Source: Candidatus Saccharimonadia bacterium
GTDB taxonomy: Bacteria; Patescibacteriota; Saccharimonadia; UBA4664
Length of the DNA: 53,236 bases
Reading direction: 5' to 3'
Assembly: GCA_038251135.1 (NCBI GenBank)
Contig: JBBSBR010000003.1
Coordinates: 1 to 53,236, forward strand
In this document: positions 21,459 through 36,794 of the stretch, in pieces
How the letters are laid out: every line of letters starts with the position of its first letter
Numbering within the stretch: position 1 is the stretch's first letter
The notes under the pieces: model-generated
What the model was told of the DNA's origin: nothing
Database searches by the model: none
The model's input: the letters and a program-made list of their open reading frames with translations, nothing else
Made by a program: the position numbers and the translations under genes

Positions 21459-21514
21459 ACCGAATGGTGGAGTTTACGCTTGGCGGGTCTTGGTTGTGAC
21501 CGTATAATGGAGTT

Positions 21515-21667
21515 ACCTCTGCGGTACTGGAGTTGGCTTATCATTTTTCTCTGTAAGATAACCAACGGGAACCCAAGATTGTCCTGGCCCGTGGGCCGAG
21601 TGACTGAGGGTACCCACCTGCTTTTAGCAGGGAAAAGTTGGCTTGCCGATACCGTATTCGCGGAGTC
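21515..21667 (+). ncRNA. ssrS: 6S RNA
   Basis: TATAAT at 21503; closing stem CTCTGCG/CGCGGAG; GGGAACCC...GAGGGTACCCACCTGC-TTTT-AGCAGGG resembles the Firmicute-type 6S core; downstream hairpin 21687-21717. Confidence 0.8.
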
Positions 21668-21766
21668 TGAATAATTTACGGACAGCGTAAGAGGGGGCCT
21701 ATGCGGTCCCTTCTTGCAATTTATGAGCGCGCTGGGGCATACTTGGTAGGTTCAAGTTAAACATTT

Positions 21767-22015: not shown

Positions 22016-22516
22016 CAGTGCAGAAGATGACCGCGCCCGGATCTTTTAAAACCGCCATAGAGTGATGCAGTACAAGGAAGGCAGAGCATTTTCGAGAGCC
22101 GTACTCAAGGTACGGTGAGCGAAAAGCGCAATGCGTGACGAAGTAGTGCGCAGTCTATGGTGGTTTTACCCTGGGTGAGGAAAGTCCGGACAGCATAGAG
22201 CAGGACGGTTGCTAACGGCAACCGCAGGCGACTGTAGGGAAAGTGCCACAGAAACGATACCGCCGCGCGGTAATTACAAGATTACTTTACGCGGTAAGGG
22301 TGAAACGAGTGCGGTAAGAGCGCACAGCCGAACCGGGTGACCGGCAAGGGAGGTAAACCCCGTCTGCTGCAAGGTTGCTTTAACGCCCCGCAAGGGCTGT
22401 TGCTCGCAGGTTAAAGCGTACGTACCGCTCGAGGTTCATGGCGACATGGATCCCAGATAGATGGTCATCACGTGTACGATTTCGGTCGTGCATGGACAGA
22501 ATCCGGCTTACCACTG
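22016..22516 (+). ncRNA. rnpB: RNase P RNA (type A-like) with enlarged P3
   Basis: GAGGAAAGTCCGG, GAAAGTGCCACAGAAA, GGGTGAAAC, GGTAAACCCC, ACAGAATCCGGCTTA; promoter TTGAAA-17-CATAAT upstream. Confidence 0.96.
22047..22168. repeat. Palindromic insertion in RNase P helix P3
   Basis: Terminal IR TAAAACCGCCATAGA/TCTATGGTGGTTTTA, apical GCCGTAC-TCAAG-GTACGGT. Confidence 0.7.
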
Positions 22517-22591
22517 CTCTGGCAATGATATGATTCGCCCAATGCCTCAAAGCCTTGGGCGTTTCGTTGCAATAATCCCGCCTAGTGTACA

Positions 22592-30675: not shown

Positions 30676-30754
30676 GCGGAATTTGATAAAGCATAGCGTT
30701 ATTGTTGTCAGTAGTTATTGACTTTCGTTGCATAAATCAGGTATACTGTACTAC

Positions 30755-31543
30755 ATGAATGAAGAGCAGCTAATCTCCCATATTGAAGAACTCGGCCTCT
30801 CCAACAAGGAGGCGCGCGTCTATGTAGCCTGTCTTAAGACGGGCGCCGCTTCGGTCCAGCGCATCGCCGACCAGTCGGGCATAAAGCGCGTTACGACTTA
30901 CGTAATCCTTGAGTCGCTGGTCGGTCTCGGCCTCGTGTCGCAGGCGATCAAAGGCAAGAAGACGCTCTTTATGGCTGAAGATCCGTCAAATCTCCGCCGC
31001 ATCATTGAGAAGCGCGAGCAGGAACTGGCCGAGCAGAAGGTCAACTTCGAGCAGGCGTTACCGGGTCTGCTCGGGTTGAAATTGCTGCCGCAAGACACCC
31101 CGAACGTGAAGTTTTACGATAGCGTCGACGGTATCAAGGGCGTTATGAAGACATTTCTGGCCATTCACAAAAAAGACGCCGCCGGCGGTATCTACGGCAT
31201 CACCAATGTCGATCAGCTCTATGTATTCTTCCCTGAGATCCGGTCCAGCGGCGGCAACCCGGCCCGCATTAGCGAGGGCGTGCATAGCCAAATTATTTAT
31301 ACGAGCAGCGAGGGGCCGATCTACAAAGGCACCGATGAGGCGAGGAACCGCGAGTCGCGCTGGGTACCGGCCGATAAGTATCCGTTGACGAGCGATATTA
31401 CGATTGTCGGCAGCCACATTATTATGCTTTCACTCACCGGACCGCAACCGATCGGCATCACGATCGACAGCCGCGATATAGCCTTGGGGCTTACGGCTTT
31501 CTTTAAGCTGGCTTGGGAAGCGGCTGAACAATATAACAAATAA
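30755..31543 (+). CDS. TrmB-family transcriptional regulator
   Basis: LGLSNKEARVYVACL...IKRVTTYVILESL HTH, VKFYD, F..AWE. Confidence 0.88.
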   Translation: MNEEQLISHIEELGLSNKEARVYVACLKTGAASVQRIADQSGIKRVTTYVILESLVGLGLVSQAIKGKKTLFMAEDPSNLRRIIEKREQELAEQKVNFEQALPGLLGLKLLPQDTPNVKFYDSVDGIKGVMKTFLAIHKKDAAGGIYGITNVDQLYVFFPEIRSSGGNPARISEGVHSQIIYTSSEGPIYKGTDEARNRESRWVPADKYPLTSDITIVGSHIIMLSLTGPQPIGITIDSRDIALGLTAFFKLAWEAAEQYNK

Positions 31544-31582
31544 GCGTTCACTTATAACGTTCCCCTTTGTACTCATGAACCG

Positions 31583-31611
31583 TTGACCAAAAACCAACTA
31601 TATGTTAGATT
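31583..31611 (+). promoter_or_regulatory. Sigma70-type promoter of the candidate ncRNA
   Basis: TTGACC-17bp-TAGATT with extended TG. Confidence 0.7.
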
Positions 31612-31617
31612 GGTTGT

Positions 31618-32010
31618 GTTCACGCACCACGAAACGTGGTGCCTGAGACTTGGACCGCGTCCGCGGCCTCGACCTGCACCAGGCGGCGATCGAAGGAGAG
31701 AGAGATGGGTAACTGATGTTCATCATCAGATTTATTCGACCCTCTGTCTCCCTGGACTCTGCCAAGCGGCTGATGTAGCTGCGTCAGGCAGAGACTTGGG
31801 GACACCATGCTTTGTGAGCCCTTACCCCAAGTCGGGGCTCGCAAAGGGGGAACGCGGACTGCGCAGTCCTAGATCCCGTATCCAAGTAGGCGAGGTCGGT
31901 AGACCTACCTCCACGTCGGCGCTGTCGGCCTCGTCTACTTGCATTTCAGCCCGATCCTCTTACGAGAGGGTAATTTCGCCCCCATCTTGGATCCCAAGAT
32001 GGGGTCTTTT
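31618..32010 (+). ncRNA. Unassigned large structured RNA (about 390 nt)
   Basis: At least 8 stems, candidate 8-9 bp pseudoknot, G-U pairs favouring the + strand, UACG tetraloop, own promoter and + strand terminator; no credible ORF. Confidence 0.75.
31978..32010 (+). terminator. Intrinsic terminator (+ strand)
   Basis: CCCCATCTTGG/CCAAGATGGGG stem then TCTTTT. Confidence 0.85.
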
Positions 32011-32014
32011 CGTA

Positions 32015-32980
32015 TCAGAGCCGGTTGTTGTACCAAAGGGCGGCATACTCGGGCAAAACGGGATTGGTAATTATACCGGTGCCCATTTCGGCGCCGGCGT
32101 ACTCTTTGTGGCGGCGAGGCTCCAGTTTGATGATCAAGTGATGGTTGAGGCCGTCGATTGCTTCCTGGATGTGGTAATTGAAACTCATATTGGCACTGTC
32201 GAGGCGGGCCGCGACGTGGCGGAGACTGCTGGCGAGCGAGTGCAGCTCGCCGACGCCAAGTTCATTAAACAAGCTTACGTGACGGCGCGGCATAAACCAG
32301 ACTTCATACATGTGCGCCGAGGCGTAGGGAGTAACGGCCACCAGATGCTTATCGGCATAGATAACCCTGACCTTTTGCGACTCCTCCCATTGCACCACGT
32401 CGCAGATGGCACAAGATCCGTTCTCGGCGTAATAATGGGTGAAAGCGTCGCTCTCGGCGACAATGCGCGGCGGTACCAGCGGCAAAGCATATATCTGGCA
32501 GTGCGCATGGGAGACACTCGCTCCGGCGATCGGTCCGTCGTTCTTGAAAACCAAGACGTAGCGAATGCCGGGGGTAGCCTTGAGAGCGGTTAGGCGCTGA
32601 CGGTAGGCTTCGAAAATCAGTTCGATATTCTCGAGACTGAGCTCGGAGAATTCGCGGTCGTGGTCGGGGGTGTTGATGACGACCTCAGTCGTTCCGTATG
32701 CCTTGGGATTATTGAAGTTCAGTTGCGAGAAGAGGTTGGTCACGACCTTGACCTGCCAATTCTTGGGTCCGGGTTGGGCAAACTTGCTAGGCTCGGCATT
32801 GTTGCAGAACGGACAGTGGGGGTTTGGGATCTTGTGAGGCTCGGGCTCAGCTGATCCGGAAAAGGCATCCGGGCGCTGGTTTCGCCTGGGCGCCATAATC
32901 ACATATCGATCGAGATAGTAGTGCTTACGTATCTCGGAGCTAGGGGTTTCGGGATTCGATGGTGGCAGCTTTGGTTTCAC
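32015..32980 (-). CDS. galT: Galactose-1-phosphate uridylyltransferase-like HIT protein
   Basis: SEIRKHY..DRYVI.APRR..RP, CPFC, FKNDG..AGAS.SHAHCQI; start (GTG 32980) uncertain. Confidence 0.82.
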   Translation of the reverse strand: MKPKLPPSNPETPSSEIRKHYYLDRYVIMAPRRNQRPDAFSGSAEPEPHKIPNPHCPFCNNAEPSKFAQPGPKNWQVKVVTNLFSQLNFNNPKAYGTTEVVINTPDHDREFSELSLENIELIFEAYRQRLTALKATPGIRYVLVFKNDGPIAGASVSHAHCQIYALPLVPPRIVAESDAFTHYYAENGSCAICDVVQWEESQKVRVIYADKHLVAVTPYASAHMYEVWFMPRRHVSLFNELGVGELHSLASSLRHVAARLDSANMSFNYHIQEAIDGLNHHLIIKLEPRRHKEYAGAEMGTGIITNPVLPEYAALWYNNRL

Positions 32981-34226
32981 GATGGCGCTCAATAGTCTCC
33001 TCGTATAAGCGTAACAACTTAACGGCCTGATTGGTAGCGCTAAACTCGGCCGCCAGGTCGGCGCTGCGGCGTCCCATCTCGAGGCGGACCTCGTCGTCAG
33101 CCAAGACATGATTAATTTTGGCGGCGAAGTCACGGGCGGTCGGCTTGGCGAAGAAGCCGTTGTAGCCGTCACGCACGATCTCGGTAACCGCCGGGTCGGT
33201 CATCACAATCGGGAGGCCGGAGCGGGCGGCTTCGTTGAGCACCAGTCCCTGGGTGTCCGTCATTGAAGGAAAAGCGAAGACGCTGGCTATGGCGTAGAGG
33301 GCGCCAAGTTTGGAGTGGTCGACGTGCCCGGCAAAGGTTATGCGGTCGCCGTAGACGGTGGCCGCGGCTTGGTTCTTGAAGGCCTGAAGATCTTCGCCGG
33401 TACCGGCAATGAGAAGTTTGGCGTGCTCGTTCTTGGTTGCGATGCCGTCGAAACTGCGAATAAGCAATCCAAGGTTCTTTTCGGTTCCTATTCGCCCGAC
33501 AAAGAGGACGGTTCTATCGGCCGGGGAGATATGATAGTGTTTTCTGGCTTCGGCAATTTCTTTAGAATTCGTTGTAATTCTATCAACACCTGTGGGCAGC
33601 ACGACGAGCCTCGACTTCGTACCCCAGCCCTTGAGCTGATCCCTGATTTTTACTGATGGCGTTATGACGACGTCGCAGTAGTTATGGATCATGGTCACGC
33701 TGCGCGCCACGATCTTTTGGTTCCAGGCATCGACGTTGCGCTCGGGCTTAATAGCCGACAGACCGGTACGGAAGTCGGCCATGCCGCCGCCGGTGAAGGC
33801 CGGGGCAAGCAGCGAGAGGGCGATGGTACCGGGCAGGACCTGGGGGTAGTGCTTTACGTACTCGAAGAGGTCGGTGTGGTAGGTAGTTATGAGCGGGATG
33901 TTGTTGCGCATGGCGAAGTAAGCTCCGAGCAAACCGACCTGGGACGGTGTGTGGTAATGGATGACGTCGAGCTTGAGCTTCTCGATTTTGCGCAGAGCCT
34001 GGGGCGGGAAGTAGAAACTGGTCAGGTAGTCCTCGAAGAAGAGTCCTTTGACGGCCGGGAAACGGATGATGCGCTTGTGGGGTTCCTTGTAGCGGAGGTT
34101 CGGCTTGGGCGCAAAGATATAGACTTCGTGGCCCATGGCCTCGAGTTCGGTACGGAAGGTTTCGATGGAGAAGGCGATACCGTCGGCGCGGGGCAAGTAC
34201 ATGTCGCTGAAGAAGCCTATCCTCAT
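32940..34226 (-). CDS. Glycosyltransferase family 4 (glycolipid synthase-like)
   Basis: MRIGFFSDMYLP..DG, TYHT, VGRIGTEKN, TDTQGLVLNEA. Confidence 0.92.
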   Translation of the reverse strand: MRIGFFSDMYLPRADGIAFSIETFRTELEAMGHEVYIFAPKPNLRYKEPHKRIIRFPAVKGLFFEDYLTSFYFPPQALRKIEKLKLDVIHYHTPSQVGLLGAYFAMRNNIPLITTYHTDLFEYVKHYPQVLPGTIALSLLAPAFTGGGMADFRTGLSAIKPERNVDAWNQKIVARSVTMIHNYCDVVITPSVKIRDQLKGWGTKSRLVVLPTGVDRITTNSKEIAEARKHYHISPADRTVLFVGRIGTEKNLGLLIRSFDGIATKNEHAKLLIAGTGEDLQAFKNQAAATVYGDRITFAGHVDHSKLGALYAIASVFAFPSMTDTQGLVLNEAARSGLPIVMTDPAVTEIVRDGYNGFFAKPTARDFAAKINHVLADDEVRLEMGRRSADLAAEFSATNQAVKLLRLYEETIERHRETKAATIESRNP

Positions 34227-36416: not shown

Positions 36417-36794
36417 GGGGCTGATCAGCTTCGACGTTGGGACTTTTACAAGCTATGTGCGCAGGTCGTTTTGCACGCGTAACGTGCTACAACTTACCTC
36501 AATTGGCAAGTTTTTTGCGCAGGTGAAGGCAGCTTTTAGCTCACCTTCATTTGCACCAGCTTACGCCTAAACAACATAAGCCATCGGCACCTGACTCCAG
36601 ATGGGGGTTCGCCGGTGTTATATTATCTGGACGCTCCGAGCAGTAGACCTCTGCTGCCCGGCTAAGATGTGAGGTTGCTCTAGCGGAGAGTCTGTTCGTT
36701 CATGGCCGCTAGCTAAGATTTAAGACGGACTAAACCTGTAGTGCACTCGCGAGTAACCCGGCGGACCGGGGTGCAATTCCCCGCAGCTCCACCA
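36417..36794 (+). ncRNA. ssrA: tmRNA
   Basis: GGGGCTG...CAGCTCCACCA Ala acceptor with G3-U70, TTCGAC, tag ORF 36505-36570 GKFFAQVKAAFSSPSFAPAYA*; terminator 36793-36825. Confidence 0.96.

Follow-up and report, generated by a model that had tools for sequence, protein, structure and literature searches.

A putative structured RNA family with a minimal open reading frame beside a TrmB-type regulator gene of Saccharimonadia

The window analyzed here, a stretch of 53,236 nucleotides (nt) from the genome of a Candidatus Saccharimonadia bacterium (assembly GCA_038251135.1, contig JBBSBR010000003.1), contains a 471-nt gap between a gene for a TrmB-family regulator (30728-31543, + strand) and a convergent GalT-like gene (32015-33172, - strand). 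What does this gap encode, and does its product belong to a known class of RNA? The original prediction, made from the letters of the window, proposed a stand-alone and densely paired RNA of a new large non-coding class, possibly a ribozyme or a scaffold of a ribonucleoprotein (RNP). It is highly probable that the locus encodes a real, conserved and structured RNA family that is absent from Rfam. The gene spans ~395 nt (31618-32012, +) and represents an undescribed family located beside the TrmB-type sugar regulator gene throughout the order. The proposal of a new conserved RNA family thus holds, whereas a purely non-coding RNA is too simple a description, because the RNA possesses a translation start site with a minimal open reading frame (ORF), and in some lineages longer ORFs begin at the same start. 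We tentatively propose that it is a TrmB-linked regulatory RNA with a small ORF that senses translation and acts in trans, a reading that is quite possible rather than probable.

Transcription unit and predicted fold

Scans of both strands revealed a promoter-like site at 31583-31611 and, at 31980-32004, a terminator-like hairpin with a T run behind it. The two signals were called on the + strand only, in agreement with the original prediction. The promoter-like site consists of a -35 box, a 17-nt spacer and an extended -10 box with TG ahead of it, and matches the consensus at 9 of 12 positions. The intrinsic terminator (31980-32012, +) has an 11-base-pair (bp) stem and ends 3 nt short of the stop codon of the GalT-like gene, which lacks a separate - strand terminator. 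Judged by these signals, the gap contains an independent + strand transcription unit, the span of which runs from the likely start behind the promoter to the terminator. A riboswitch or cis-acting leader would be followed by a regulated gene on the same strand, but downstream there are only the terminator and the end of the convergent gene. Any output of the RNA would thus be exerted in trans or through the convergent operon. The RNA gene has a single match in the 865-kb assembly, namely itself, and is therefore not a miniature inverted-repeat element, the repeat explanation against which the original prediction had asked to be checked.

The + strand between promoter and terminator is predicted to fold with -190.4 kcal/mol (z = -6.92), a value that none of 100 dinucleotide shuffles reached; the reverse strand of the same stretch gave a z of -4.74. 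Just past the likely RNA start is the 5′ hairpin H1 (31624-31642), in which 8 bp (31624-31631/31635-31642) enclose a 3-nt loop. The central part comprises the start site and the hairpins termed P5 and P6, which are described below. In the 3′ part, a small hairpin (31856-31869, arms 31856-31861/31864-31869), a long hairpin of ~20 bp with G-U pairs (31884-31940) and a 5-bp hairpin capped by a tetraloop (31956-31969, arms 31956-31960/31965-31969) precede the terminator. The predicted fold holds most of the stems that had been named before, in addition to the ~20-bp hairpin. By direct reading, all stems, repeats and complementarities listed in the original prediction are found where it had placed them, including a 9-nt word that occurs twice (31645-31653 and 31791-31799) and its two 6-nt partners (31827-31832 and 31882-31887).

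To compare the RNA with known families, the region 31450-32150 was scanned against the 4227 covariance models of Rfam 15. No model matched at gathering scores, as the original prediction had expected, and even at E values up to 10 only two chance-level matches were obtained (16.8 bits versus 49.5, and 12.1 bits versus 38), one of which is the terminator. The same scan of 19 homologous loci gave no family match and nothing better than an E value of 0.09. In the region there was neither a match to the transfer-messenger RNA (tmRNA) models nor a tRNA-like domain, and no match to the 6S RNA model. Elsewhere in the window, Rfam models matched RNase P RNA at 22138-22526, tmRNA at 36417-36794 (86.6 bits) and three tRNAs, so that the placement of RNase P RNA and tmRNA in the original prediction is right. 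Its claim for 6S RNA is borne out only by a sub-threshold match at 21513-21670 (+; 40.8 bits versus a cut-off of 46.4, genome E value 2.6e-7). This sole 6S-like match in the genome, located just upstream of a tRNA and the RNase P RNA, is probably the 6S RNA of the organism. Literature searching, at the level of search listings, returned no paper on the RNA.

The element downstream of TrmB-type genes

Homologues were identified by synteny. TrmB orthologues sharing 41-76% identity with the regulator of the window are present in 15 other genomes of the family, giving 16 loci in total. The element lies directly downstream of the TrmB-type gene in ten of these, in a non-coding gap of ~400-650 nt in nine loci and of 175 nt in one. 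In two further loci the genes are 0-22 nt apart without any spacer, and the other four have different neighbors. The GalT-like gene is the convergent downstream neighbor in 10 of the 16 loci, and the element was also found where another gene takes this position. The family loci share an architecture that consists of a near-consensus promoter 25-60 nt past the TrmB stop codon, either one or two hairpins near the 5′ end, a Shine-Dalgarno-like run rich in purines with an AUG, a hairpin with a constant 5-nt core, long G+C-rich hairpins and a terminator. The 5′ hairpin appears in the predicted folds of all nine family homologues, and the 3′ half is made of long G+C-rich hairpins that vary in number and sequence.

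Beyond the family, a TrmB orthologue was found in 39 of 53 genomes of the order. We inspected by eye the 700 nt downstream of the orthologue in 19 genomes from 11 other families. All 19 loci have a promoter, 5′ hairpins and a Shine-Dalgarno/AUG site, and none has a long conserved ORF. The promoter-like site is located 25-110 nt past the TrmB stop codon in every one of them, as it is in most family and metagenome loci. The metagenome loci came from contigs scanned with an alignment of 16 regulators, which added 44 loci, many of the same layout; a single TrmB protein as query against metagenome and genome contigs returned nothing useful. Outside the order, only a paralogous type of the regulator was found (~200 bits versus at least 345 bits).

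By contrast to synteny, which led to homologues with covarying structure, the BLASTN search that the original prediction had suggested found no relatives: against 40 related genomes, the RNA gave a single chance-like match of 24 nt. Among the syntenic gaps, nhmmer, sensitive blastn and tblastx detected no similarity and no shared peptide, and word counts across the loci revealed no further conserved motif. MAFFT misaligned the helices, whether applied to whole gaps or to the stretch from start site to P5, and only trimmed P5 hairpins could be aligned. A covariance model built from the window stretch as a single sequence (R1) recovered only the closest relative, at 21 bits.

Several loci deserve separate mention. 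The loci of the paralogous TrmB type (L117-L128), which belong to other orders or are second copies in genomes G025 and G052, were examined downstream of the regulator gene. By eye, nine to ten of ten have a strong promoter there, followed by non-coding sequence that includes a start site and a short ORF. The pairing of regulator and RNA gene thus looks old, and the two seem to have been duplicated jointly. A minimal version of ~80 nt occurs in one genus (L009 in G007, 40-165 nt past the TrmB stop codon), with a promoter, a hairpin presenting the Shine-Dalgarno sequence, a 2-codon ORF and a terminator, and lacking both P5 and P6. At L016 (G020), a tmRNA-like sequence, recognized by eye from its ends, takes the place of the element ~375-760 nt past the TrmB stop codon; in the window, the tmRNA gene sits 4.4 kb further on. 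Two metagenome loci, L047 and L053, are near-identical by eye in the 3′ part and the GalT-like gene, from ~340 nt past the TrmB stop codon onwards, and strongly different in the ORF-bearing 5′ part, which suggests very fast turnover or recombination of the latter.

Start site, hairpin P5 and loop-flank pseudoknot

In the window RNA, a Shine-Dalgarno-like purine run (31694-31698) precedes a mini-ORF (31705-31716) that consists of AUG, two sense codons and UGA. The AUG of a second short ORF of 20 codons (31716-31778) overlaps the stop codon of the mini-ORF, and the second ORF ends in the apical loop of P5. This ribosome-binding site and mini-ORF, which are conserved among the loci, had escaped the original prediction. 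We searched 26 promoter-bearing loci for a Shine-Dalgarno core 4-12 nt before an AUG and 20-160 nt from the presumed RNA start, and found such an AUG in 19 loci. The ORF has only 3 or 4 codons at 12 of these 19 AUGs, compared to 17 of 130 other AUGs in the same RNAs (binomial p 5e-7, a figure which, like the shuffle-based ones below, overstates independence given the relatedness of the loci). By raw count, a new start codon overlaps the mini-ORF stop or directly follows it in ten of these 12 loci. Reading of the 19 order-level loci by eye added ten more ORFs of 3-4 codons, the remainder having 6-20 or ~30-36 codons. By this comparison of sequences, a start site with a minimal ORF of 3-4 codons is under selection.

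The encoded peptides are not alike. The ORF after the conserved AUG spans 3 to 48 codons, no peptide is conserved in any frame among ten family loci, and the second ORFs do not resemble each other. Moreover, the P5 core is read in two different frames among six family loci traced by eye, indicating that it is the RNA rather than a peptide that is conserved there. Longer ORFs of 30-48 codons begin at the same start in two loci of family f5 (L115, 160-270; L116, 125-217) and in four metagenome loci (L073, L074, L047 and L053), in which they comprise 105-147 nt and start 136-139 nt past the TrmB stop codon. They share Ser/Thr-rich beginnings and Arg-rich ends. By eye, two of the long ORFs differ mostly at synonymous sites over the first 13 codons, with one Ser codon changed at all three positions, and in one family locus the beginning of the second short ORF resembles that of the longer ORFs. 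Pfam gave no match for five long ORFs, and a search of a large protein collection with the 48-codon ORF returned only the cluster of the query itself. Ribosomal protein L34 was considered for a long ORF and rejected, as the Pfam L34 family did not match and the true L34 gene is located elsewhere in the genome. Also rejected was a helix H3 that would mask the start site by pairing with the stretch before P5: it was convincing by eye in five loci and at chance in 17 of 17 by a run-length test.

The hairpin P5 (31754-31796) has a 5-nt core, and its arms are 31757-31763 and 31787-31793. An alignment of the trimmed P5 hairpins from eight loci (A6) gave a stem of 12 pairs, in which 94.9% of the cells are standard pairs, compared to 35-55% when the partner is slid by 1-3 columns. 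Four of the 12 pairs are invariant, three vary on one side and four are changed on both sides. The pair count was reached by 4 of 500 shuffles and the covariation score by 9 of 500. The support from covariation is thus modest but real in this alignment, the stem being mostly conserved in sequence. A covariance model of P5 (R2) picked, among 42 loci, its training loci and one new locus. In the window's own genome (G000) and in G001, G008 and G012, it matches once per genome, at the regulator-linked locus; two marginal matches elsewhere were seen in G009 and G040. A class-wide scan with R2 gave matches in 2 of 151 genomes, a number that is uninformative on absence as the model misses known copies. 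The distance between the AUG and the downstream P5 was measured in 17 loci and is 25-52 nt in each of them. Outside the P5 core, there is almost no sequence conservation among the loci.

Adjacent to the 3′ arm of P5 is a strand (31793-31801) that forms nine perfect pairs with 31825-31833 in the 13-nt loop of the hairpin P6 (31810-31846), a stem of 12 bp (31810-31821/31835-31846). For the test of this pseudoknot, which the original prediction had put forward as a candidate, 21 nt beginning 3 nt into the 3′ core of P5 were compared with the sequence 28-110 nt downstream, requiring perfect Watson-Crick complementarity. Equivalent pairings of 7-12 nt were found in 16 of 18 loci, which had been chosen by eye for a P5-like hairpin (four with a variant core, loci without a recognizable P5 being left out), compared to about five in shuffled sequences. 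In 13 of the 18 loci the pairing has a shuffle p of at most 0.03; the two failures have 4 and 6 pairs. As the paired letters differ between loci, the pairing covaries, and the P6 loop sequences differ between genera. Folding of the remainder without the 5′ strand placed the 3′ strand at the tip of a hairpin with a closing stem of at least 10 pairs in 15 of 17 loci. On these comparisons, a covarying loop-flank pseudoknot is conserved across the loci.

Three control pairings stayed at chance level in the 17 loci. The loop against the upstream region gave 0/17 at p of at most 0.05, and neither the 5′ region against the region after P6 nor the start site against the stretch before P5 exceeded chance in any locus. 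The first two of these controls represent elements of the original prediction that the homologues did not support. The loop against the upstream region stands for a second loop partner, and the alternative folds envisaged through the second partners of the repeated word are not conserved; the 5′ region against the region after P6 stands for the long-range closing helix 31655/31849.

In 10 of the 18 loci, to which the window does not belong, the pseudoknot takes up bases of the outer 3′ arm of P5, its 5′ strand starting at +3 or +4. A full-length P5 and the pseudoknot would therefore be mutually exclusive in those ten loci. There, as in the window with its short P6 loop linkers (see below), the geometry points to alternative states rather than a single rigid fold.

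Proposed function and rival explanations

We propose that ribosomes start at the AUG of the mini-ORF and restart on the overlapping second short ORF. They would then pass through the 5′ arm of P5 as far as its loop, where they would terminate, thereby melting P5. The freed 3′ flank of P5 could capture the P6 loop, so that the RNA would work as a translation-gated switch. Its output might act in trans as that of a small-ORF regulatory RNA, in the manner of SgrS, SR1 or RNAIII, and the adjacent TrmB regulator probably includes the RNA in its regulon. A bolder version of this proposal is unlikely: the RNA would represent a new class of stand-alone ribosome-gated switches, in which a minimal translated unit drives the change from hairpin to pseudoknot without a target in cis and reports translational or sugar state in trans, and which has been inherited with the TrmB-type regulator across an entire class of ultra-small bacteria, including after duplication of the regulator.

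Regulatory RNAs with small ORFs are known from other bacteria, including SgrS, which encodes SgrT and lies beside the regulator gene sgrR, SR1 with SR1P, and RNAIII with hld. Similar to these, the window RNA has its own promoter and terminator, a length of a few hundred nt, many hairpins, and a putative 5′ ribosome-binding site with a small ORF that varies between lineages in presence and length, and its gene is located beside that of a sugar-related transcription factor. By likeness to SgrR/SgrS and SR1, we favor a regulatory RNA tied to the adjacent sugar-type regulator. Unlike SgrS, SR1 and RNAIII, to which it has no relationship in sequence or in Rfam, the RNA has an ORF of mostly 3-4 codons that is coupled to a second short ORF and followed by a conserved hairpin and a loop-flank pseudoknot. 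It also occurs in a phylum of the Patescibacteria type, in which the literature searched describes no such RNA. Look-alikes of the regulator in a protein atlas, with Patescibacteria-type phyla among them, hint at this placement, as does the genome size.

The mechanism has parallels in the leader-peptide switches of IncI-alpha plasmids (repY/repZ), in which translation opens a helix and a hairpin loop then forms a pseudoknot. They share with the window RNA a very short ORF, the stop codon of which overlaps the next start codon, a loop pairing with a distant strand, and mutually exclusive structures. However, repY/repZ control a downstream cistron on the same mRNA, whereas here transcription ends at a terminator that faces a convergent gene. 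The mRNA-like domain of tmRNA also has a short ORF in a stable RNA, a stop codon in a hairpin loop and pseudoknots behind it. Nevertheless, the window RNA differs by Shine-Dalgarno and AUG initiation, by the lack of a tRNA-like domain and of any model match, and a canonical tmRNA is already present in the window. OLE, GOLLD, ROOL, raiA and HEARO, large bacterial non-coding RNAs listed in Rfam, are likewise long, strongly structured, lineage-restricted RNAs found by comparative analysis. Compared to them, the window RNA has no Rfam match at gathering scores, far less sequence conservation, a length ranging from ~80 to 550 nt among its relatives, and a translation start. In kind, the new family looks like a variant of the structured bacterial small-ORF regulatory RNAs, with two unusual features, a selected ORF of 3-4 codons and a hairpin/pseudoknot pair right behind the ORF.

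Some observations weigh against the proposed switch and its action in trans, both of which we infer. Besides the relatedness of the loci and the choice of the pseudoknot set by eye, the P5 core is recognizable in only 18 of the ~45 loci with the element. In minimum-energy folds, the pairing of the Shine-Dalgarno sequence and AUG is close to the average of the RNA, which demonstrates neither exposure nor masking of the start site. In the same type of fold, the 3′ strand of the pseudoknot is 22-100% unpaired, reaching at least 70% in just 2 of 17 loci. In the window, the pseudoknot 5′ strand shares a single base with the core arm of P5, so that the exclusion is weaker here, and the P6 loop leaves linkers of 3 nt and 1 nt round the 9 bp, so that a full P6 and all nine pairs could hardly coexist. 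Finally, the ORFs of 30-48 codons suggest that a peptide, and not the RNA, could be the effector.

The last point leads to another explanation, in which the transcript serves as mRNA for a small protein, its long structured part being a 3′ untranslated region. The effector would then be the peptide, the gene in the window would be degenerate, reduced to a 3-codon stub and a 20-codon remnant, and the fold would merely provide stability. This possibility has to be taken seriously, although it is not a likely one. It would account for the long ORFs at the same start in two f5 and four metagenome loci, for the mostly synonymous differences between two of them over 13 codons, and for the family locus whose second short ORF starts like the long ones. 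It is difficult to reconcile with ten family loci that share no peptide in any frame, with ORF lengths from 3 to 48 codons, and with a P5 core read in two frames, pointing to selection on the RNA. Contrary to what a decaying gene would show, the 3-4-codon stubs recur in seven or more families that have all retained promoter, start site and fold. In addition, five of the long ORFs have no counterpart in Pfam, and the protein collection returned the query alone. A protein-binding scaffold, a sponge or a catalytic RNA, with the P5 core and the pseudoknot as binding or active site and the start site being incidental or a guard against read-through, would fit the invariant 5-nt core in a hairpin that is unique per genome, the covarying pseudoknot, the strong promoters, and the retention in genomes of 0.6-1.7 Mb. 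It is quite unlikely all the same, as little is conserved outside the core, hairpins vary in number and size, and one genus makes do with ~80 nt, unlike known ribozymes and large RNPs. Furthermore, 6 of the 16 family loci lack the element behind TrmB, and the enrichment of mini-ORFs would be left unexplained. No candidate partner was found; a CsrA sponge in particular is unlikely because the genome has no CsrA gene. As for the ribozyme or RNP scaffold of the original prediction, nothing in the comparison singles out either.

The gap might also be a by-product of the convergent layout, that is, an insulating or terminating spacer or, on read-through, an antisense RNA to the GalT-like operon, devoid of any function as an RNA. 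The distance of 3 nt between the terminator and the GalT-like stop codon, the lack of a - strand terminator and the convergent arrangement in 10 of 16 family loci would suit such a spacer. Yet two family loci with genes 0-22 nt apart do without one, the element is present beside other downstream neighbors as well, and a mere spacer would not retain a promoter so close to the consensus, a mini-ORF with its start site and a pseudoknot that covaries, all of which makes this explanation very unlikely. It is extremely improbable that the locus encodes a very divergent housekeeping RNA missed by Rfam, above all the RNA of the signal recognition particle (SRP). A divergent SRP RNA was worth testing, since neither bacterial model, RF00169 (small) or RF01854 (large), matches the genome or the region, and since a strong promoter is typical of housekeeping RNAs; RF00169 matched in 0 of 41 genomes of the order, and RF01854 was run on the window's own genome only. 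However, the proteins are missing too. The M domain of Ffh (PF02978) was found in 0 of 41 genomes of the order, and the SRP54-type GTPase domain (PF00448) was represented in 8 of 41 by weak P-loop matches alone (model positions 2-54) and not at all in the window's own genome, whereas all 14 control genomes carry both SRP proteins. The whole SRP pathway, including the GTPases Ffh and FtsY, thus seems to be missing across the order, as judged from the own genome and 40 relatives, and the reading as an SRP RNA was rejected. The loss of ffh and ffs has already been described for Parcubacteria (PMC4508563). Moreover, the region has no SRP, tmRNA or 6S match even at E values up to 10, and tmRNA and RNase P RNA have their genes elsewhere in the window.

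To our knowledge, almost no regulatory RNAs have been described in Patescibacteria, the genomes of which are so reduced that retained elements are likely to matter. The locus would add an unannotated RNA gene, kept next to a single regulator gene in an entire order and probably beyond it, and a possible regulator-RNA pair in organisms whose regulation is largely unknown. It also offers a concrete and testable instance of selection acting on a 3-4-codon mini-ORF within a structured RNA. As the sequence turns over too fast for BLAST, such families are missed by routine annotation.

Two further features of the locus concern protein-coding frames. An open frame of 336 codons (31583-32593, +) crosses the entire RNA gene and extends beyond it on the strand opposite to the GalT-like gene. 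Like every other frame of the region, it is without a match in Pfam, relatives lack an equivalent, and its openness is probably due to chance, the sequence being rich in G+C; a programmed frameshift into it was rejected on the same grounds. The flanking genes themselves were assigned by Pfam, the upstream regulator to TrmB (1.3e-12) and the downstream gene to GalP_UDP_transf. The GalT-like ORF as listed begins with GTG at 33172 and shares 233 nt (32940-33172, -) with the glycosyltransferase ORF upstream of it. The Pfam matches of the GalT-like ORF begin only at residue 118, and its true start is therefore probably located further downstream.

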